A stretch of 64,000 nucleotides of DNA from Acetofilamentum sp. (GTDB lineage Bacteria > Bacteroidota > Bacteroidia > Bacteroidales > DYOH01): assembly GCA_020720625.1 (NCBI GenBank), contig DYOH01000007.1, forward strand, positions 11,848-75,847. The letters are read 5' to 3'. The notes below the pieces were generated by a model. That model saw nothing but the letters and a program-made list of their open reading frames with translations, was not told the origin of the DNA and ran no database searches. Position numbers and translations under genes: made by a program. Each line of letters opens with the position of its first letter. Position 1 is the stretch's first letter. Shown here piece after piece: positions 15,666 to 53,155 of this stretch.

Positions 15666-15739
<74 letters not shown>

Positions 15740-15753
15740 TTTTTTTTAAAAGG

Positions 15754-15839
15754 GCCCAGGTGGCGGAATAGGTAGACGCGCTGGACTTAAAATCCAGTGG
15801 CCATTAACGGCCGTACCGGTTCGATTCCGGTCCCGGGTA
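15754..15839 (+). tRNA. tRNA-Leu (anticodon TAA), type II with long variable arm
   Basis: Acceptor GCCCAGG/CCCGGGT (one A:C mismatch at 5:68, G:U at 1:72). D stem GCG/CGC. Anticodon stem CTGGA/TCCAG with loop CTTAAAA. Variable arm GGCC-ATTAAC-GGCC. T arm ACCGG-TTCGATT-CCGGT. Confidence 0.9.
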
Positions 15840-42961: not shown

Positions 42962-43948
42962 TTAGTCGTTTTTTAGGTTTGATAGTAATTCATCGAAATT
43001 TGTGGCTTTCACACATTTTGTCTCGTTTTTAATGAGCCAATATTCCTCATATATTTCTATGACGGATTCGTTTATAGAAAAGTTACAATCAAAGTTAAGC
43101 GATGCTCTTCGGAGCGCATTTAAGGTTAATTTTTGTCGTTTCTCTGAGCCAAAATTTTTAAATTTTATGGCCGCAGATATTTGGGTGTTTGGCTTAAAAT
43201 GCAAATCGGAATAATCGAAATGCACATATTCTGCCGGGAAAATATCATCGAATTTATTTTGCATAATCAAATCTTCAGGCCTCCCGTAATCGTATTTTGT
43301 TTTGTTGAAAATTAGCAATTTGTCGGCAAATTGCATGGCTAAATCCCAATCGTGGGTAGAAAAAATGATGCTACGTTTTTCTTTATTTACTAATTGTCTT
43401 AGCAGGTATATTATCTCTATTTTATTTTCGATATCCAAGAAGGCCGTAGGTTCGTCGAGCAAAATAAGTTTTGTTTGCTGACATAAAGCTTTTGCAAGTG
43501 CTATTTTTTGTTTTTCTCCATCGCTTAGATTAAATAAATTCCGGTGCAATAAATGCTCTGCCTTTACTAGTTTTAGTGCATTAAGTATTATTTCTTTGTC
43601 GGAGCTTTGCAATTTTGCATTCCATTTTAGGTAAGGTATTCTGCCTAGTGCTACATAATCAGGCACATTGAAATTAAAAGTGATATTTAAACCTGCCGGA
43701 ACATACACTAACTCTTTCGAAAGGCTTTGTATATCAATGTTTTTAATATTCTTCCCGAATAGCAAAATATTGCCGCTAAGTGCATTTTGCAATCCGGAAA
43801 GGGTTTTCAGGAAACTCGATTTTCCGATACCGTTAGGGCCGAGCAATCCTACTAATTCGGGTTTCTCAATGGAGAGATTCAGTTTGCGAATCAGTGGCGA
43901 AATATTTGGGAATCCGATATCCAGATTCTCTATTGCTAGTTGCGACAT
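42962..43948 (-). CDS. ABC transporter ATP-binding protein (FepC/BtuD-like core) with a C-terminal extension of about 90 aa; no permease nearby
   Basis: 328-aa ORF. Walker A: GPNGIGKSS. Signature: LSDGEKQK. Walker B: LLDEPTAFLD. H-loop: STHD. I do not recognise the extra C-terminal domain. Confidence 0.85.
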   Translation of the reverse strand: MSQLAIENLDIGFPNISPLIRKLNLSIEKPELVGLLGPNGIGKSSFLKTLSGLQNALSGNILLFGKNIKNIDIQSLSKELVYVPAGLNITFNFNVPDYVALGRIPYLKWNAKLQSSDKEIILNALKLVKAEHLLHRNLFNLSDGEKQKIALAKALCQQTKLILLDEPTAFLDIENKIEIIYLLRQLVNKEKRSIIFSTHDWDLAMQFADKLLIFNKTKYDYGRPEDLIMQNKFDDIFPAEYVHFDYSDLHFKPNTQISAAIKFKNFGSEKRQKLTLNALRRASLNFDCNFSINESVIEIYEEYWLIKNETKCVKATNFDELLSNLKND

Positions 43949-43998: not shown

Positions 43999-46038
43999 TT
44001 AATAGCTTTCGAAATCGTCGTCTTGTAAATTGATATTAATTTTTGTGGGTTGGGACAGATTATCAAAATGCGTTTTAGATGAGCTTGTTTGGTAATCTTC
44101 TATTGATTCATTATCATCAATATTCGATATATCTGTTTTTTCTTGCTGAATTTCCGAGGCGGTATTTAATATGCTTGATGTTTCTGAAATTGTGCTCGTA
44201 TTATTGGTTTTAAACTGGTGTGCAATTTGATTTAAATCTACCACAATCTGACCTAACTCTTTAACTGTGCCCGATAACTTTTCGGTTCTCGAAAGATTGC
44301 TTTGCGAAGTTGCAGAAAGTTGCAATATTGTGGCATTTATTTGAACAACACCGTTTTCTTGTTCTTTTACCGCTTCGTTTATTCTTTTTAAATCGTCAAC
44401 CAATTCGCGAATTTTCGGAACGGCCATTTCTATAATAGCTATTGTTTTTGATGCTTTATTTTTACTGGCGTTTGAAATGGTTTTGATTTGTGCCGAAGCT
44501 TTGCTTGTTTTTGATGCCAATTTTTTTATCTCTTCGGCTACAACGGCAAATCCTTTTCCACTTTCGCCGCTTCGCGAAGCTTCAATAGCTGCATTTATTG
44601 AGAGTAAATCTGTTTTGGAAGCAATTTCGTCGATAATACTCACATGCTCGCTGATTTCGATGAGTGCATCTACTGTTTGTTTTACCGATTTGGTTAATAT
44701 TTCGAGACTTGCGCCCAAATTTTGCGCATCCTGGGTATTTTTGTTTGTTATTTCGGCATTTTGTTTGGCCATACTTAGAAATTCTTCAGTTGTTGCCGAT
44801 ATTTCTTCTATCGATGCGGCCTCTTCGTTGGCGTTTTGCACCAGATTTTCCGTTATTTCCATCACCACTTTATTTTGAGAATCTATGTTGATGGCCTTTT
44901 CCTGTAATTTTCCAACGATTTGAATGGATAGATTTTGTTTGGCTTCGTAAATTTGTTGTGCAATATAGCCTATTTCGTCTTTGGTGAAATGGGTTTCTTG
45001 AGTTGTTAAATTACCATCGGCCAATTTTTTTATTTCCTCGGCTGTTTTGTTTAAAGGGGTTATAACAAACATCTTTGTGGTGTAAATAATTATTGAGCCA
45101 TAAATTATCAGCATCAGCAATATTATGGGTATCACTATGGAGAGTTTGCCGTATACAAAGTCGTTTATAAAGCGCGATGGCTGAAATACGCCAATGTACC
45201 ATAATTCGGGGCATTCGTATTGCGTTAAGTCCATTTTTCTGTACGAAAAAATATTTTTTTCTTTATTAAAATGGTGATAAAAGAGTAAGCCCTCTTGCTT
45301 AGCGAATAATTCGTTTGGTTTAAAATGTGTGTTTATGGTGTTTTGGTTTACAAGAATACTGTCTGCATTAAAAAGAATGATAGATGTTTGGTCATCGCTA
45401 TTTTGGTATAGGCTTACTATTCTTTGGGTAAAATAGTTTAGTTTTAACTGCATAACTACAGCGCCCAAAATATTTTGGCCATCTATAATTGGTGTGAGTA
45501 AGTAAAATGTAGGTAAAGAATCGGAATAAAAGACCGGACTAACTATGGTCTTTTTCTTTTCAAGAATATTATCCAGAAGGATTTTGGTACTTTTTTTGCT
45601 TTCCTCTGATATTTTGTTTACGTTAATAAAGGGTTCGCCGTACTTTAAAGTTCTTAAGGCGGAAATGTTGAGCGTTTGATTCCGATTGATGTTTAAAACA
45701 ATGCTCAGGTTTTCTATTGCTTGATTATTTTGATAAATTCCTTTTAAAAGTGAATAGGCTTCTTGTCTGTAAACATCGTTTTGGGGCTGCTTAGAAACAT
45801 TTGTAATACGTTTTTCCTGACTTAATAAGCGGGCAATTCTTGCATTGTCTTCTATCCATAAATTAAGGCCGATATTCATATTTTTTTGTAGTATATCTGC
45901 TATGGAAATAAAATTTTTTCTGGCCTCTATACCCGCCTGACGAAAAATACTAAAGGCAATGAATCCGAGCACTACCACCAATACCGGTAGATAAATCAAA
46001 AGAAGTTTTTTGTTCAACCTGCCGTTTATTTCAGTCAT
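43999..46038 (-). CDS. Methyl-accepting chemotaxis protein (TM - about 265-aa periplasmic sensor - TM - HAMP - MCP signalling domain - flexible tail)
   Basis: 679-aa ORF. TM1 is [21 protein letters not shown] and TM2 is [25 protein letters not shown]: [17 protein letters not shown]...[13 protein letters not shown] hairpin: [40 protein letters not shown]. The C-terminus is ...DDDFESY. Confidence 0.88.
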
Positions 46039-46039
46039 T

Positions 46040-46558
46040 TTATTCTATTTTAACTGCATTTTCCGGTTCGGTAAGGCTGGTAGAAGGAATTAGGCCTTTT
46101 GATTTCATGTGTGGAATAATTACTTCGTATTTTAATTGACCATCTTCTGCAAAGAAATTGATACAGGAGCCTTTTTCGTTTAATCCTTTTTTATCGGTTA
46201 TAACCAATGTTGCGTTTGATGATGTTTGTGCCAAAATTTCGGGTAAGAATTTGTTCGATGAGCTGGGTACATAAATTATGTGGCATTTTCCCATTTCCGA
46301 AGGCGATGAAATGCCTTTTACTTCGATATTCTGAGCTCCTACTTTTTTTGTTTGAGCAATACTGGTTAATTCTTTCAAAACCTGGCTCTCTCCAATTACT
46401 TGCATTACAAAATTTCCTTGTGTGTAATCTGTTGGCCATCCTATTACGCGGGTAAAGTTGTAAATCATCAAAGCTTTGAATTTATCGTCCTGAGCGTTTG
46501 TTTGTTCAAAATGGAACAAAAGGGTGAGTAAAGCTAAAATTCCGATATATTTTTTCAT
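46040..46558 (-). CDS. Periplasmic YfiR/DUF4154-family protein
   Basis: The track start is 46597; the ATG at 46558 gives the signal peptide [23 protein letters not shown]. Single domain: [15 protein letters not shown]...FVMQVIG...CHIIYVP...LVITD...[14 protein letters not shown]. Its stop lies 1 nt before the MCP ATG. Confidence 0.75.
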
Positions 46559-46653
46559 ACTTACACATTTTTTTTGTGAATATTTTTTTCTATACAAATA
46601 TATTTAATTTTTATTAAACGTTGAATTCTTTAACATGTTTGAAATTCGATTAT

Positions 46654-47826
46654 TTATTTTTTAGTGATAAAAATTTCAACCCTCCGATTGTATCCTTCTT
46701 CAATTTCGCTGGTAGGAAAAGGATATATCATACTTTGGCATCCGAAACCGGTTACAGTTATTCTACTTGGCTCTATTCCGTTTTTTACTAAATAATCTTT
46801 TACTGTAACGGCTCTTTCTTCCGAAAGTTGCTGGTCTATCTCCGTGCTTGGCAAAAATCCGTTGGTATGCCCATCGAGTCTGATGGTTAATGTCGGATTA
46901 AGTTTCATTTGTTTAAGAACTGAATTCAAAAGTTTGTATGATTCCGGTTGTACAAGAGAATTTGGTGAGTTGGGCGAAAAGTAAATATTTTGTGGATGCT
47001 TGAAGTCTTTCTTCAGCTTTTCCATGCTGATGTTTAATTCTTCTTCGAATAATTGGGTTAAGCCGCTTGAGCTTACAATGGTATCGAAAAGTAAATATTT
47101 TGGGTGATAAAAGGTTATATCATAGTTCGGAAATTCGTGTGCTTTGTCTTTGATACCCACTTCCATAGCAAAAATTCCTTGTCTGTCGGATACCGTTTCG
47201 CCAATTTTTTCTCCTGTTCGGGTATTCATGATAAAAATTTGTACATCCTTAATCTCATTTTCGTCTACCTTGCTAATTTTGCCTTTTATTGTTTTCATTT
47301 TTAAATAACTAAAAGACATGAGCGAGATGGAGCTTCTCTCTTCGAGCAGGCTCGAAACTTTCAGATAATAGGTTTCGCCATTTTGAACATCAAAAGCAGG
47401 GCTAAATGATTTTTGGTTTCCTAAAACCGAAAGGCCTGTGCGACCAAATACTTCGGCATCCAATCCAAAAAAATTCGAACGCACCGATTTTATTTCTCCT
47501 GAAAGTATTTTCTGACAAAAGTCGCTGCTGCCATCAAATTTGTAAAGTTCAAAATCATAGTTGGTTAAGGAATCGGCTGGCAGAATATCAAATATAATTT
47601 TGGCATTTTGCGTGATGGAAAATCGGAACCAAACGGCATATTCCTTTCTACCGAATATTTCAACGCCTGTTGATGCCGGTTTTCCCAGAGGCCCGATTAT
47701 TTCGGAGGTGGAAATATTATATGGATTTTTACAGGTATTGAAGGAAGAAATTTCTGTTACTTTCTGTGCGTAAATGCTTGATGCAGATATCAATAACATT
47801 GACCATAGGAGTAGTAGTTTTTTCAT
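46654..47826 (-). CDS. Exported OmpA-family protein (beta-sandwich N-domains plus OmpA/MotB-type peptidoglycan-binding C-domain)
   Basis: 390-aa ORF with a signal peptide ending in IYAQ. The CarboxypepD_reg-like segment is KGKISKVDENEIKDVQIFIMNTRTGEKIGETVSDRQGIF. The OmpA_C motifs are RLDGHTN...LSEERAVTVKDYLVKNGIEPSRITVTGFG...NRRVEIFI. Confidence 0.8.
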   Translation of the reverse strand: MKKLLLLWSMLLISASSIYAQKVTEISSFNTCKNPYNISTSEIIGPLGKPASTGVEIFGRKEYAVWFRFSITQNAKIIFDILPADSLTNYDFELYKFDGSSDFCQKILSGEIKSVRSNFFGLDAEVFGRTGLSVLGNQKSFSPAFDVQNGETYYLKVSSLLEERSSISLMSFSYLKMKTIKGKISKVDENEIKDVQIFIMNTRTGEKIGETVSDRQGIFAMEVGIKDKAHEFPNYDITFYHPKYLLFDTIVSSSGLTQLFEEELNISMEKLKKDFKHPQNIYFSPNSPNSLVQPESYKLLNSVLKQMKLNPTLTIRLDGHTNGFLPSTEIDQQLSEERAVTVKDYLVKNGIEPSRITVTGFGCQSMIYPFPTSEIEEGYNRRVEIFITKK

Positions 47827-47859: not shown

Positions 47860-50784
47860 TTATTCGAACAAAGCTTTTAGTTCGTCGTTATTTAGCTGCA
47901 AATCTTTCTCCAAAGTTAATACATCTTGAGATAAATTTCGTTTTTTGTTTTGTAAAATTTGTATTTTTTGTTCAATTGTCTCTTTACTAATGAATCGATA
48001 TACCAAAATATTGTTTTTTTGCCCAATTCTGTGCGCCCGATTTATGGCTTGGGATTCTACCGCCGGATTCCACCATGGGTCTACTATTAATACGTAATCT
48101 GCCGCTGTAAGGTTTAATCCTACTCCACCTGCTTTTATGCTCAATAAAAATACCAGTATTTCTTCGTTGTTTTGAAATTTATCGATATTTTGTTGTCTTT
48201 CTTCTTTTTTCATGGCACCTGTTAACAGGGCGTAACTTTGGTTTGTTTTTTTTAAATAATGCTCAAAGATACTAAGAATTTTGATGTAGGAGGAAAAAAC
48301 CAAAACTTTGTTGTTTTCTAGTATTATTTCATCCAATATCCTGAAAATTTCGTTAAATTTTTCCGATTCTACTTCTTTTTCGGGAAATACCAAAGCTGCA
48401 TGGTTTGCCAATTGCCTTAATTTACTTATACTCTGAAAAATCTGAATTTTTGATTTGCGCCAAAAATCGCTTTCTTGTTCACCTTCCATGATAAAATTCC
48501 GGATTTTGGATTTTTCGCGGTTGTATATTTCTAAGTGCTCTTCCGATAGCTCTATATATCTAAGCTGTTCGGTTAATTCCGGCAAATCGCCGGCAACTTC
48601 GCGTTTTGTTCGCCGGAGAATAAACGGATTTACCAATTTTTTAAATTTATTTATGGCTGCTTCGTCTCGCTTTTTTTCAATGGGTTGTAAAAATTTTTCT
48701 TTAAAATAATTCAGTGTTCCCAATAATCCGGGGTTTATAAAATTCATTTGCGCCCATAAATCAGAGAGCGAATTCTCTATGGGTGTGCCTGTTAGTACTA
48801 TTTTATGTTGGGCATTTAAGGTTTCTATGGCTTGATATATTTTTGAGCCCGGGTTTTTAATATTTTGGCTTTCGTCTAGTATTATCAGGTTAAACTTATA
48901 TTTCTCCAGTTTTTCGTAGTCGTTACGAACTACCCCATAACTGCTTAAAATGATGTCGTATTTCGATATTCTACTCCATTTTTGTTCGCGTTCGAAACCG
49001 GAATACAACAGTACTTTTTTTCCCGGTAAAAATCGATTTATCTCATTTTGCCAGTTGTATAGCAGCGATGTTGGCATTATTATCAGGCTCTGAAAGTTCA
49101 ATGCATCTTGTTTTTCTTCAAATATTGATAATTGTTCTGCACCTGTATTTGGTGCTGATGCATTTTTGCTTTTTATACTCAGATATTCAATAAGTGCTAA
49201 TGTTTGTAAGGTTTTTCCCAAACCCATATCGTCGGCAAGGCAGGCTCCCAAATTTTCTTCCATCAACATGGCCAGCCACGAAAATCCTTCTTGTTGGTAT
49301 TGTCGCAGTGTGGCTTGCAGTGGCGCTGGTTTTTCGATAGTTTGTGGTTTTTTATTGTAAATTCTTTGTAGCGATTGAAAATAGTTTTGATCTATTTCTT
49401 CAATATGGTTAATTAGCAGACTGTGGTGCTTTTCTATACGCAAATGACCCATAATTTCTTTGCTTACTTCAAGTAGTACTCCGTATTTCTCGAACCAGGC
49501 TTTGGGTAGAATTACTATTCGGCCATCGGGCAATTGGTATTCGCGAATTCCTTGAAGGAGATTTTTTTTGAATTTGATAAATGGTATTTCAATTCCATCA
49601 ATCAATACATTGGCATAGATATCGAACCAGTCGTTTTCTTTTTTCGTTTCGAAATGGAGTTTTATCTCAGAAGTATAATATCTCTTGTGAAATACCGACT
49701 TTACAAGCCTTATTTTACGGCTTAAAATATTCTTTTCGTTGTTGCTAAGCCAGTTAAGTAATTCGTAGTTTAGTTCTTCGGGATTCTGGCCGTTTTGTAG
49801 CTTCGAAAGGGCAAAGTTATTGTCGCTTATTTCTTGTAAGCCTAATTCTTTTAGGTGATTAATCAATAAGTTTTCTTCGTTGGAGTTGCGTTCTAGCACA
49901 AAAAATCGATAGTTGTTTTCTGTCTTTTCCATCCAAACCAACTTTTCGGCCTTGTCTTTTGCATAGAAACTTTTTTCGCCATAATGCAAGGTGGGTATCA
50001 ATCCGTATTGTCCACTAATAATGGTGTTTAACTGCAATTTAAGTTCGGGGCTTTGTTCTAATTTTAGTATTTCAAAGCCATTGGCCCTTACCTGGTAATG
50101 CTTTAAACTTTGTAGTACAAATTTTTCGTAATAGGCTGCTTCTGCACTTTGGCTAATGCTAATATATTCTTTGCTAAAAAAGGGCAATAACTTTTTACTG
50201 TCAATATCGCTAAAAAAAAATAAAGTATTGTTTAGAATTACATAAGCAGGCTGATTAACCAATACTAAAAATGATGCATGGAGTAAACTTTTTTCTTTAT
50301 GGTTTTGTATAATGCTCAGAAAATATTTGGTGTGATTGTTGTCTTTGATAAAATTAAATACGGCTTGGCTTGATTCTGCATGGGTTACTATTTTATCATC
50401 TTTGTGAATATTGGTGGCCGATTTGTAGTATAAGGGTATTTGATGGCTAATGATTATATCCAGAATTTTTTTTATTCTGGACTCCAGATAGGGTTGTATT
50501 CTCTCTTCGAAAAATGCCTTTTCTATTCCGGTAAAGAAATCCTGGATGCTTATTTTTTTTTTCTTACTGAAAACCCTCAGAATTTCACTATCGCTAAATT
50601 GACTGATGAGCCTAACTATTTCTCTTTGATGTAGATTTAGGTTTTTTTCGTTTTCACCTTTTACTGATTCAATTTCCGTAAAAAATTCTTTTGGTTCTTT
50701 CTTATCAATAAAATAGGCGTTTAGTATATGCCCCAGATAATTATGCTCTCTAACTGCGACAATAAAAAGTTTTTCGCTGATCAT
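47860..50784 (-). CDS. SNF2-family helicase (SNF2_assoc-like middle region, no SWIM finger)
   Basis: The track start at 50814 is a TTG; the first ATG is at 50784. Motifs: LRQYQQEGFSWL, LADDMGLGKTLQ, ILDESQNIKNP, LTGTPIENSL, and the helicase C region LSIKAGGVGLNLTAADYVLIVDPWWNPAVESQAINRAHRIGQ. Confidence 0.9.
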   Translation of the reverse strand: MISEKLFIVAVREHNYLGHILNAYFIDKKEPKEFFTEIESVKGENEKNLNLHQREIVRLISQFSDSEILRVFSKKKKISIQDFFTGIEKAFFEERIQPYLESRIKKILDIIISHQIPLYYKSATNIHKDDKIVTHAESSQAVFNFIKDNNHTKYFLSIIQNHKEKSLLHASFLVLVNQPAYVILNNTLFFFSDIDSKKLLPFFSKEYISISQSAEAAYYEKFVLQSLKHYQVRANGFEILKLEQSPELKLQLNTIISGQYGLIPTLHYGEKSFYAKDKAEKLVWMEKTENNYRFFVLERNSNEENLLINHLKELGLQEISDNNFALSKLQNGQNPEELNYELLNWLSNNEKNILSRKIRLVKSVFHKRYYTSEIKLHFETKKENDWFDIYANVLIDGIEIPFIKFKKNLLQGIREYQLPDGRIVILPKAWFEKYGVLLEVSKEIMGHLRIEKHHSLLINHIEEIDQNYFQSLQRIYNKKPQTIEKPAPLQATLRQYQQEGFSWLAMLMEENLGACLADDMGLGKTLQTLALIEYLSIKSKNASAPNTGAEQLSIFEEKQDALNFQSLIIMPTSLLYNWQNEINRFLPGKKVLLYSGFEREQKWSRISKYDIILSSYGVVRNDYEKLEKYKFNLIILDESQNIKNPGSKIYQAIETLNAQHKIVLTGTPIENSLSDLWAQMNFINPGLLGTLNYFKEKFLQPIEKKRDEAAINKFKKLVNPFILRRTKREVAGDLPELTEQLRYIELSEEHLEIYNREKSKIRNFIMEGEQESDFWRKSKIQIFQSISKLRQLANHAALVFPEKEVESEKFNEIFRILDEIILENNKVLVFSSYIKILSIFEHYLKKTNQSYALLTGAMKKEERQQNIDKFQNNEEILVFLLSIKAGGVGLNLTAADYVLIVDPWWNPAVESQAINRAHRIGQKNNILVYRFISKETIEQKIQILQNKKRNLSQDVLTLEKDLQLNNDELKALFE

Positions 50785-50923
50785 TTGGAAAATTTCATTT
50801 CTAAAAAGCTTCAAATATAGCTCGAAACAAACATTTGATAAAATTTTTTATTGGATTTCAGCTAAAAATATCCGGTGTTGCGCTGTATATTCAGGAAGTA
50901 CTGGATTGGCTTTTTTTTGTTGC

Positions 50924-53155
50924 TTACAATGTTTTTAGGTCAATGTTTACTGGTATTTTTATGGCTGTTACTATATTACGGCCCATGTTTAGGTAATTTA
51001 ATTCTTTTAAAGTGGATAAATGGTCGGTATAAGCCTCATCGAGCAGGTTGTTTATTTGTATACTGAGCTGTAATTTACTATTTTTAAGGTGTATACTAAA
51101 TTCACTTCCGGTATTTAGCAAAAAATAGGCTGCTGTGGGTGTTTCGTAGCTAGCAGGGCTATTTTGTGCAAAGGCATATACGCTGCTAATGCTAAATTTT
51201 AGGTTGTGTAATTTACCTAATTGTTTATATTTTAGGGTTATACCTGGCTTAAATTTGCTGTGGGGTATAAATGGCAGATTTTTTCCGTCGGCTTGTTTAG
51301 CATACAAATAATCGTAGTTTAATGCAAAATGCACAAAGTTTGCGGGGGCAAATTCCACCATCAATTCGGTGCCTTTGATATTGGCATTCTGTTGCATGTA
51401 TTTGTAAACCACATTGCCGTTAATACTATCGCTGCTTGGGCTGATAAAAATGTAATTTCGCAATTCGTTGTTAAATAAGGCTATATCCACACTCATTTTA
51501 TTTCGATGATAATGGATGCTTAAATCGGTTTCGTAGCTTTTTTGTGAAATTAAATCGGCGTTGCCTTGCTCGTACCTTGTGCCGTGAATTCCGTTTTGTG
51601 TGAGTTCTGCCTCGTTTGGATTCCGGTATGCCGATGCAAAATTTCCTCTCAGCAGGAGATACTTTGCAAGATGATAAGTGCCACCAATGGAATAACTTAA
51701 GTTTTGGTAAGTTTTGTGTAATTCCGGAATAGCTTTATCGAGATGAGTTTGTTCGGGAACATCAATTCTTTTGTAATCGTAGCGCAATCCGGTTTGCAGA
51801 TTCAGATTTTGCTCATCGCCGTATTGCAATAAGCTAAAGCCCGATATTTCTATAGAAGAATAGTTTGGAACTACCATTTGCGGAACTTCTTTGTTTTTGT
51901 TGGTTTTTATAAATCCTTGTGCGCCTGTGCTCAGTTCAAATTTTTTGCTGATGGTATAGATGCTTTTCAGTTCGGAGGTAAAGGTGGAGAGTTTCATATC
52001 GGCAAGGGTAAATACCGGTGTAAGGTCGGAGCCTTTGAGTTTTCTATGGTTGCTCATGTAGGCTATATTGAAAACTACTTTGCTGTTTTGCATAAAAAAC
52101 GTATTGTTAGAGGCAATTAGCATATTGTTTAAATCCTGATACCATATTTCGTTTTTTCGTATATTTTCCGGATTTAAGGCAATCGATTGAGCCAATGTAA
52201 GTCCTAGCTTCATATTGGTTTGGTCGAAATAGAATCTAAAATTTCCGAAGGTTTTGTTCCAGGCTATCTGGGCTTTGATATTGTTGCTATTAAGTCGGGA
52301 ATTTGGTACCACAATTGCATTTCCTGTGGTATAATCCAGATGCGATTTTGCACCAATTCTGATACCGGCACTAAAATCTTCAATCGTTCCCCTGATTCCT
52401 GCCGATGTATTATACGCTTGGGTATTGCTATGATATTGCATATTATAGTCCGAAAGAATTTGGTTGCGGGCTGCCGCTTTCTCCGGCAACACGTTAATTA
52501 CCCCGCCAACAGCATCGGAGCCGTAAAGTAGTGATGCTGGGCCTTTTATTACTTCTATTCGTTCAATTCCGTATTCTTCAATCACAAATGGATGATTGGC
52601 CGAAAATTGATAGTTTTCCATTCTTATTCCGTTGTTCAGCATCAGGATATTGGTCATGGAAAGGCCTCTGATAACAGGCTTTGTAATGCCGTTTCCTTTT
52701 GAAATCATATCCACACCCGGAATATTCGAAAGCTTTTCCATGAGCGAAATGGCGCCATCATCGAGAATTTCTTCTTTGTTGATAGCCATTATCTGAATGG
52801 CATTTTCGTGTTGCGATGAGTATTTTCCGGCTGTTATTACCACTTCTGGCGATTTTACCTCGCTTGGGGTCATTTGTAAACTAAGATTTTGCGTTGCGTT
52901 GCTAATTTGCAGCACAATAGATTCGTAGCCTATAAAGGTAAATTGCACGGTAAAATACCCTTGTGGAATTTTTTTAAGCTCAAAATTTCCTTCGGTGTTT
53001 GAGTAGGTTCCGGTGTTTAATTCTGGCAAATATATACTAACTCCTGCCATGGGCTTATTATCGGAGATGTCGCTTATTTTTCCGATAATTTTGCTTTGTG
53101 CCATGATGTTTGTATAAAAACTGATTATGGCAAGTAAGACCAATACTCTTTTCAT
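50924..53155 (-). CDS. TonB-dependent receptor with N-terminal CarboxypepD_reg domain
   Basis: 743-aa ORF with a signal peptide. The N-domain is IIGKISDISDNKPMAGVSIYLPELNTGTYSNTEGNFELKKIP. The plug region is IEVIKGPASLLYGSDAVGGVINV, followed by a long barrel. Confidence 0.9.
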   Translation of the reverse strand: MKRVLVLLAIISFYTNIMAQSKIIGKISDISDNKPMAGVSIYLPELNTGTYSNTEGNFELKKIPQGYFTVQFTFIGYESIVLQISNATQNLSLQMTPSEVKSPEVVITAGKYSSQHENAIQIMAINKEEILDDGAISLMEKLSNIPGVDMISKGNGITKPVIRGLSMTNILMLNNGIRMENYQFSANHPFVIEEYGIERIEVIKGPASLLYGSDAVGGVINVLPEKAAARNQILSDYNMQYHSNTQAYNTSAGIRGTIEDFSAGIRIGAKSHLDYTTGNAIVVPNSRLNSNNIKAQIAWNKTFGNFRFYFDQTNMKLGLTLAQSIALNPENIRKNEIWYQDLNNMLIASNNTFFMQNSKVVFNIAYMSNHRKLKGSDLTPVFTLADMKLSTFTSELKSIYTISKKFELSTGAQGFIKTNKNKEVPQMVVPNYSSIEISGFSLLQYGDEQNLNLQTGLRYDYKRIDVPEQTHLDKAIPELHKTYQNLSYSIGGTYHLAKYLLLRGNFASAYRNPNEAELTQNGIHGTRYEQGNADLISQKSYETDLSIHYHRNKMSVDIALFNNELRNYIFISPSSDSINGNVVYKYMQQNANIKGTELMVEFAPANFVHFALNYDYLYAKQADGKNLPFIPHSKFKPGITLKYKQLGKLHNLKFSISSVYAFAQNSPASYETPTAAYFLLNTGSEFSIHLKNSKLQLSIQINNLLDEAYTDHLSTLKELNYLNMGRNIVTAIKIPVNIDLKTL

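Follow-up and report, generated by a model that had tools for sequence, protein, structure and literature searches.

The window analyzed here, a 64,000-nucleotide stretch of contig DYOH01000007.1 from Acetofilamentum sp. (Bacteroidales), contains three co-directional genes on the minus strand. They encode an OmpA-like periplasmic protein (46654..47826, 390 aa; open reading frame (ORF) list, Pfam and AlphaFold2 (AF2)), a secreted protein of the DUF4154 (YfiR/HmsC) superfamily (46040..46558, 172 aa; Pfam PF13689) and a methyl-accepting chemotaxis protein (MCP) of class I topology (43999..46038, 679 aa; Pfam and hydropathy). A previous sequence-only reading had placed the three ORFs at these positions, where all of them were indeed present, and had taken them for a YfiB/YfiR-like module wired to a chemoreceptor. 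It had also pointed out that a single base separates the DUF4154 stop codon from the MCP start codon, and the junction does read GAA TAA A ATG (TAA-A-ATG at 46036..46042, minus strand).

Proteins encoded at the locus

The middle protein matched the Pfam DUF4154 model (PF13689) with an E-value of 4.1e-27 and 95.5 bits (cut-off 24.9) over 137 of 143 model positions, the domain covering residues 26-162 (46073-46483, minus strand). Its signal peptide, judged by eye, is kept in the homologs, and every homolog in the alignment begins with MKKYI, which corresponds to a start at the ATG at 46558. A longer, 185-aa form starting from the TTG at 46597 was ruled out, since this codon sits within a conserved promoter motif described below; the DUF4154 membership given in the sequence-only reading was thereby retained, while its length of 185 aa was revised to 172 aa. 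Identity with YfiR itself did not follow at the same level. The protein scored 21.1 bits against the NCBIfam model sequest_YfiR (cut-off 85) and 86.3 bits against the TOL_0243 YfiR-like model (cut-off 125); a profile built on it reached the YfiR structure in the PDB with an E-value of 1.9e-3, and pairwise alignment with E. coli YfiR gave 19% identity at an E-value of 1.3. Judged by these scores, it is a member of the DUF4154 superfamily but no YfiR equivalog, so that the proposed YfiR-type identity holds for the superfamily and fails for the NCBI equivalog model. DUF4154 is the best-conserved gene of the cluster, with 57-91% identity across the clade.

The OmpA-like protein ends in an OmpA_C domain of the predicted peptidoglycan-binding type (residues 282-368, 46723-46983, minus strand) that was recognized by Pfam (OmpA, 5.1e-14, 52.9 bits, cut-off 27.2), in agreement with the OmpA/MotB-type domain assigned to it before. 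Foldseek also matched this domain to the C-domains of Pal, OmpA and PorE, with TM-scores of 0.6-0.8 to Pal and OmpA, and gave YfiB no preference over any of the three. In the AF2 model (pLDDT 82.9) the chain consists of beta structure only between about residues 51 and 268, and the alpha/beta OmpA_C fold comes after it; two beta-sandwich domains occupy residues ~22-268 (47023-47763, minus strand). A signal peptide was recognized by eye and a lipobox was not found, with zero cysteines among the first 30 residues. The score against the NCBIfam YfiB model was 38.9 bits, with a cut-off of 128. Because it lacks a lipobox and carries about 250 extra beta-sandwich residues, the protein is not YfiB. 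We regard it as a predicted soluble peptidoglycan-binding protein, with the caveat that its OmpA_C motif is a variant, reading GHTN (residues 319-322, 46861-46872) where GHTD is usual; N322 of this motif is invariant in 16 of 16 aligned OmpA-like homologs. Distant homologs at 39% (L094) and 27% (L095) identity have no DUF4154 neighbour, and the N-domain partner beside DUF4154 was found in the close clade only.

Hydropathy of the MCP revealed two hydrophobic segments, TM1 (residues 8-39) and TM2 (residues 290-327), which flank a periplasmic double Cache (dCache) ligand-binding domain (residues 35-296, 45151..45936, minus strand). The AF2 model of residues 35-296 (pLDDT 80.8, pTM 0.80) consists of two alpha/beta modules behind a stalk helix (2-39). 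In Foldseek searches against the PDB it matched the Tlp3 ligand-binding domain (LBD) with an E-value of 1.7e-10, as well as Mlp24, PctA and TlpA, at TM-scores of 0.64-0.68, and the top 50 matches were all dCache-type sensor or ligand-binding domains, or full-length chemoreceptor models containing one. Pfam gave no dCache match in the window MCP sequence itself; the orthologous MCP of the relative L012 had a sub-threshold dCache_1 match (31.8 bits, cut-off 45) and a further relative, P0020, a dCache_1 match. The remark that the ~265-aa periplasmic region is of double-Cache size is thus borne out by AF2 and Foldseek. CHASE8, the sensor of YfiN-type proteins, was absent from the window MCP at E ≤ 0.1 in Pfam, and a small CHASE8 HMM matched neither the window nor any of the Bacteroidota loci.

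On the cytoplasmic side, a HAMP domain (residues 325-361, 44956..45066, minus strand) aligned with that of Tar and scored 24.1 bits, just below the Pfam cut-off of 25. It is followed by a signalling hairpin (residues 430-594, 44257..44751, minus strand; MCPsignal 8.4e-24, 84.8 bits, cut-off 34.6) whose tip, GESGKGF (491-497), is canonical and aligns with the Tar tip. The architecture described in the sequence-only reading (TM, periplasmic region, TM, HAMP and MCP hairpin) was therefore confirmed, with HAMP narrowly sub-threshold. The receptors of the window and of two relatives, L004 and L012, are each seven residues short of Tar (class 36H) on both sides of the tip, and these symmetric gaps point to class 34H. 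Three EE pairs of the window MCP, one of them within the heptad TEEFLSM, line up with methylation sites 1-3 of Tar. The C-terminal pentapeptide DFESY (44002..44016, minus strand), a predicted CheR/CheB tether, follows a low-complexity linker of about 60 residues and aligns with NWETF of Tar and with the ortholog C-termini NFESF and HYEAF; a C-terminus of the form x[WFY]xx[WFY]-COOH was found in 62 of the 120 nearest MCPs. Such pentapeptide MCPs have been reported to be abundant in Bacteroidetes, and pentapeptides to sit mainly on TarH receptors (PMC7390727).

A search of the 64-kb window by phmmer, with the Che and Mot proteins of E. coli K-12 as probes, retrieved the MCP itself as the sole match. 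No homolog of CheA/W/Y/R/B/Z, MotA/B or FlhB was detected at E ≤ 1, which confirms the absence of cheA/W/Y/R/B from the window. Complete che operons were observed in two Bacteroidales metagenome-assembled genomes (MAGs; L091:7344-17168 and L092:6527-19128, from GCA_016936595.1 and GCA_016938685.1), each combining two to four MCP genes with those for CheR, a response regulator, CheA, CheW and CheB. This regulator (258-260 aa) is not a plain CheY, since its C-terminal ~130 aa have no Pfam match. In Prolixibacteraceae, an MCP gene adjoins a SusC/D polysaccharide utilization locus and a type IX secretion system cargo gene. Given these operons and the abundance of pentapeptide MCPs (PMC7390727), the statement that MCPs are uncommon in Bacteroidota needs qualifying. 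The window MCP looks competent for a normal Che pathway, because it has a canonical tip, EE pairs, class 34H helices and a pentapeptide and because che operons occur in Bacteroidales MAGs. To our knowledge, Bacteroidales have no flagella, and the order is presumably non-flagellated.

Gene order and transcription in related lineages

Six lineages were compared, namely the window, L001, L004, L007/L008, L011 and L012, the closest named relatives being Bacteroidales MAGs. They share a backbone of SNF2 helicase, OmpA-like, DUF4154, MCP (where present) and BtuD-like ABC ATPase genes. The OmpA-like/DUF4154 pair was found in all six, and the MCP in three (window, L004 and L012). The sequence-only reading had staked its claim on synteny of the three genes in related genomes, and the trio is indeed kept in L004 and L012. 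In the MCP-less relatives the ABC ATPase gene comes directly after DUF4154, and the gap measures 383 bp in L001, 169 bp in L007/L008 and 177 bp in L011. A midpoint-rooted neighbour-joining (NJ) tree built on three proteins (SNF2, OmpA-like and DUF4154) had the topology ((L012,L004),((L011,L007),(L001,window))), by which MCP-bearing and MCP-less lineages are interleaved. Since the MCP is absent from three of six lineages that are interleaved on this tree, it appears to be dispensable for the OmpA-like/DUF4154 pair.

Among 121 MCPs, the window sensor matched only P0020 and the MCPs of L004 and L012, and the L004 sensor reciprocally matched the L012, P0020 and window sensors. These exclusive reciprocal matches, together with the shared site, make the window, L004 and L012 MCPs one orthologous group. 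P0020 is the closest relative in the sensor domain, and its contig begins within TM1. The simplest history suggested by these comparisons is that the MCP was ancestral at the site and then underwent at least two independent deletions. Independent gains of the MCP in the window and in L004/L012, a history that would have spoken for selection on the adjacency, were considered less likely, as the sensors form one exclusive orthologous group at the same site. A scan of metagenome contigs for further members of the close clade yielded a single one, L096, and this is the L012 contig again.

The divergence of DUF4154 relative to that of SNF2 was about the same with or without the MCP (18/38, 20/41 and 9/23). 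Between the window and L004, identity was 62% for DUF4154, 43% for the OmpA-like protein, 42% for SNF2 and 27% for the MCP. Window and L001 are collinear across a 16-kb neighbourhood, from DUF3109, M20 and SNF2 through saccharopine dehydrogenase, ABC-F, GidB, a sigma factor and GT2. The differences between the two are confined to the MCP and a TonB-dependent receptor (TBDR), both of which are extra in the window (L001:3636-3753 at the receptor site). Because the whole neighbourhood is collinear, the adjacency of MCP and DUF4154 can be read as inherited gene order, and because all six lineages have the SNF2 gene upstream of the OmpA-like gene, the synteny of the cluster reflects general gene-order conservation. 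In the window, the flanking genes, assigned by Pfam and synteny, are the SNF2-family helicase (47860..50814, minus strand), upstream of the OmpA-like gene, and the BtuD/HmuV/FecE-like ABC ATPase (42962..43948, minus strand).

Several further features of the neighbourhood were recorded. The MCP-less gap of L001 (L001:8565-8738) holds a pair of 31-nt inverted repeats, 81% complementary and with arms 112 nt apart, which may be a small mobile or palindromic element linked to the deletion of the MCP. The window TBDR gene, of the CarboxypepD_reg-Plug-TonB-dependent receptor type, occupies 50924-53155, between the M20 peptidase and SNF2 helicase genes. An Rfam scan of the window matched only two adjacent tRNA genes (15666-15839) and showed no riboswitch for either the BtuD-like ATPase or the TBDR gene.

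A Bacteroidetes-type -7 promoter motif, TATATTTG (TAnnTTTG; 46595..46602, minus strand), lies 44 nt upstream of the DUF4154 ATG. Each of the six orthologous loci has a TAnnTTTG motif 36-67 nt before its DUF4154 start, the background frequency being about one per kb per strand, and this conservation indicates that DUF4154 is probably transcribed from a promoter of its own, apart from the OmpA-like gene. In the window region, sigma70-type promoters and terminators did not exceed the shuffled expectation, and scanning with a strict two-box Bacteroidetes promoter pattern showed no enrichment. In both L004 and L012, a GC-rich hairpin followed by a T-run lies between the DUF4154 stop and the MCP (stems of 9 bp and 11 bp, respectively) and is the strongest terminator call of its region. 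At the other end of the gene in these two lineages, the 3' end of the MCP gene runs 23-26 nt into the start of the ABC ATPase gene (L004:10759-10784, L012:8753-8775); judged from spacing alone, the MCP of these lineages is coupled to the ABC ATPase rather than to DUF4154. DUF4154 and the MCP are probably co-transcribed in the window lineage, and this appears specific to that lineage because it has a 1-nt spacer and no terminator, whereas L004 and L012 have the hairpin. The suggestion of translational coupling can be kept to this extent, as probable co-transcription in the window lineage; as a general coupling it is contradicted by the terminators of L004 and L012.

DUF4154 neighbours and alternative readings

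The neighbourhood of DUF4154 was surveyed in 79 genome and 80 metagenome loci of Bacteroidota, at 31-41% identity and mostly from Cytophagales. L012 (= L096) was the only one of them with an MCP neighbour. None of the ~115 other Bacteroidota loci with readable downstream sequence had an MCP beside DUF4154, hence the DUF4154-MCP pairing goes back to one evolutionary event. In Cytophagales, the 45 downstream neighbours in tight linkage comprised 36 PAS-HisKA-HATPase_c kinases, seven BtuF/TroA-like proteins, one sigma54 activator and one GAF-PAS protein. Such a survey had been proposed with the sequence-only reading; it brought out a signalling gene downstream as common and an MCP as not recurrent. 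Cytophagales loci (L013-L089, e.g. L062:5917-7534 and L086:5908-7606) carry one to three tandem genes for secreted DUF4154 proteins, with a kinase gene at most 80 bp after them. These kinases are about 355 aa long and a TM segment was found in none of the eight checked, so the pairing of a periplasmic DUF4154 protein with a cytoplasmic kinase is topologically unexplained.

In Proteobacteria, three plasmid loci (Paraburkholderia, Sphingobium and Indioceanicola) encode a TBDR, DUF4154 and a CHASE8 transducer joined by 4-nt overlaps, the transducers being one CHASE8-GGDEF-EAL protein and two CHASE8 hybrid kinases. The E. coli control behaved as expected, YfiR matching DUF4154, DgcN matching CHASE8 (1.3e-33) and GGDEF, and YfiB matching OmpA. 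With yfiRNB of E. coli included, the DUF4154 partner carried CHASE8 in all four proteobacterial loci tested, and DUF4154-CHASE8 with interchangeable outputs looks like the true conserved module in Proteobacteria. Bacteroidota DUF4154 proteins stand outside this CHASE8 context, beside soluble PAS kinases, BtuF-like proteins or an OmpA-like protein. DUF4154 was also seen repeatedly beside Btu/Hmu/Fec-type uptake genes, in the form of the ATPase in the MCP-less relatives and of BtuF/TroA-like genes in 7 of 45 cases (e.g. L042:6565-7350). A TBDR precedes DUF4154 in all three proteobacterial plasmid loci, and one lies ~3 kb upstream in the window.

The reading we favour, and hold to be probable though by no means certain, is that the MCP gene is an ordinary dCache/34H chemoreceptor gene beside a clade-specific OmpA-like/DUF4154 pair, co-transcribed with DUF4154 in the window lineage, the pair being independent of the MCP. 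It draws on the domain identities, folds, synteny, loss pattern, terminators and promoter motif set out above. The OmpA-like/DUF4154 pair would be a conserved unit of this Bacteroidales clade, with DUF4154 expressed from its own TAnnTTTG promoter, and by analogy would act as an envelope-associated regulatory or binding pair whose target is not necessarily encoded next to it. We infer that a small molecule is most likely the direct ligand of the MCP's dCache domain, as favoured by the match of the modelled fold to direct-ligand-binding LBDs, and that the MCP may signal via HAMP to the class-34H hairpin, docking CheW and CheA encoded elsewhere in the genome. Adaptation would proceed through CheR/CheB recruited by the DFESY tether. 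The MCP would have been present at the site in the clade ancestor and been deleted later at least twice, and it would form a separate transcription unit in the L004/L012 branch. In the window lineage the spacer would have shrunk to one base, so that the MCP now rides on the DUF4154 transcript, a co-expression without sign of a protein-level circuit.

Several points weigh against this reading. Two gains of the MCP are formally as parsimonious as two losses, and the MCP has been held at the exact position across a deep split at which SNF2 is only 42% identical. The MCP-less lineages may have lost chemotaxis altogether, in which case their MCP losses say nothing about wiring. The comparison covers just six lineages, and the NJ tree, rooted at its midpoint, is built on three proteins. 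The window dCache domain has no known ligand. Moreover, the 1-nt spacing is the arrangement seen for yfiR-type genes and their transducers, which overlap, and a downstream signalling neighbour is the rule for the DUF4154 family (36 of 45 in Cytophagales, 4 of 4 in Proteobacteria).

The model put forward in the sequence-only reading, in which the DUF4154 protein represses the periplasmic sensor of the MCP and the OmpA-like protein sequesters DUF4154 upon envelope or cell-wall perturbation, thereby feeding a Che pathway, seems unlikely to us. The genes for an OmpA_C protein, DUF4154 and a transmembrane transducer are adjacent, the last two at 1-nt spacing, and the trio recurs in L004 and L012; the pair is strictly conserved in the clade, and a comparable layout of outer-membrane protein, DUF4154 and transducer exists in Proteobacteria with GGDEF, GGDEF-EAL and hybrid histidine kinase outputs. 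However, at least two losses of the MCP have left the pair in place and the constraint on it unaltered, and L004 and L012 have a terminator between DUF4154 and the MCP. The sensor is dCache, whereas every verified DUF4154 partner tested has CHASE8, and it evolves fast (27% identity for the MCP overall, as against 62% for DUF4154). Neither the YfiR nor the YfiB equivalog model was reached, the OmpA-like protein has no lipobox and its distant homologs have no DUF4154 neighbour. It is similarly doubtful that in this Bacteroidales lineage DUF4154 exchanged CHASE8 transducers for a dCache chemoreceptor as its target, the OmpA-like protein serving as a cell-wall-anchored sink and envelope or peptidoglycan status biasing a Che-type pathway. 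If it were true, a chemoreceptor would for the first time be seen to receive a partner-switch input, in a non-flagellated bacterium; the wiring would carry the YfiBNR sequestration logic over from c-di-GMP synthesis into chemoreceptor signalling and give a handle on the role of Che pathways in Bacteroidales.

It is improbable that the MCP is a decaying orphan in a genome without CheA and CheW, heading for the deletion seen in sister lineages. No che gene lies in the 64 kb and the sister lineage L001 has lost the MCP. The cytoplasmic domain of the window MCP (residues 300-620, 44180-45140) is unusually divergent, scoring ~155 bits to every other MCP, orthologs included, as compared with ~250 bits to many MCPs for the L004 domain, which suggests that the domain has evolved faster or under relaxed constraint in the window lineage. 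Yet the 679-aa ORF is intact, with an identical copy on a second metagenome contig (P0019), the tip residues, EE pairs and C-terminal pentapeptide are all kept, and che operons do occur in Bacteroidales MAGs.

Indirect sensing via periplasmic binding proteins is established for E. coli chemoreceptors, where MBP presents ligand to Tar and DppA to Tap. A similar role for DUF4154, as an accessory ligand-binding protein presenting ligand to the chemoreceptor with no sequestration by the OmpA-like protein, is very improbable: the co-transcription in the window and the resemblance of the YfiR fold to a single lobe of a type I periplasmic binding protein (PMC4655355) speak for it, but the MCP losses and the L004/L012 terminators count here too, dCache domains typically bind directly (PDB matches with bound ligands), DUF4154 is half a binding protein with no demonstrated chemoeffector ligand and the pairing does not recur elsewhere.

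Our literature search found nothing linking DUF4154 or YfiR to an MCP, as the sequence-only reading had supposed; the pairing is undescribed, yet on present evidence it is probably no system. The comparative data set a conserved unit (OmpA-like and DUF4154) apart from a facultative MCP, and caution that a one-base junction in a compact, collinear genome does not evidence a circuit.

Comparison with known systems

YfiBNR and HmsCDE are marked by a periplasmic YfiR repressor and an inner-membrane CHASE8-GGDEF partner; YfiB is a small lipoprotein of the outer membrane that has a lipobox Cys, a Pal-like domain and an N-terminal linker by which it captures YfiR. Such a tripartite system is further marked by one conserved operon for its three genes and by physical complexes of YfiR with the sensor and with YfiB. 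With YfiBNR (TpbB) of P. aeruginosa, yfiR-dgcN-yfiB of E. coli and HmsCDE of Yersinia pestis, the window locus has in common a secreted DUF4154 protein, an OmpA_C protein and a two-TM HAMP transducer, as well as a DUF4154 gene immediately upstream of the transducer gene in near-overlap. The differences are considerable. The transducer sensor is CHASE8 of ~100 aa in those systems and dCache of ~260 aa in the window, and the output is GGDEF in the former and an MCP hairpin in the latter. The YfiB lipoprotein gene lies downstream, whereas the OmpA-like gene of the window lies upstream and encodes a 390-aa non-lipoprotein with two beta-sandwich domains. In addition, the window transducer is dispensable in sister lineages.

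The TBDR-DUF4154-CHASE8 cassettes likewise combine an envelope-protein gene, DUF4154 and a membrane signalling protein, the output domains of the last being variable. In these cassettes the envelope partner is a TBDR, the sensor is always CHASE8 and all junctions are 4-nt overlaps; the window TBDR, by contrast, is ~3 kb away, past an unrelated helicase gene. The OmpA-like protein resembles PorE and CHU_0125-type proteins of Bacteroidota in having a CarboxypepD_reg-like beta-sandwich followed by OmpA_C (partial NCBIfam matches of 2e-13 and 1e-13; Foldseek match to 6top), but it is much shorter, has no TPR or beta-propeller and a different N-terminal beta-sandwich, and scores far below the cut-offs.

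On the chemoreceptor side, the MCP shares with E. coli Tar and Tsr (NWETF) the C-terminal x-aromatic-x-x-aromatic motif after a flexible linker and the EE pairs in Tar register. Tar and Tsr have a W/F pentapeptide and a TarH four-helix-bundle sensor, whereas the window MCP has F/Y and dCache. The dCache receptors Tlp3 of C. jejuni, Mlp24 and Mlp37 of V. cholerae and PctA-C of P. aeruginosa have the same topology, the same fold (E-value ~1e-10, TM-score ~0.65) and the same HAMP-MCP output. These receptors bind small ligands directly; the window MCP is 10-15% identical to them and differs in its class 34H hairpin, its C-terminal pentapeptide and its Bacteroidales host.

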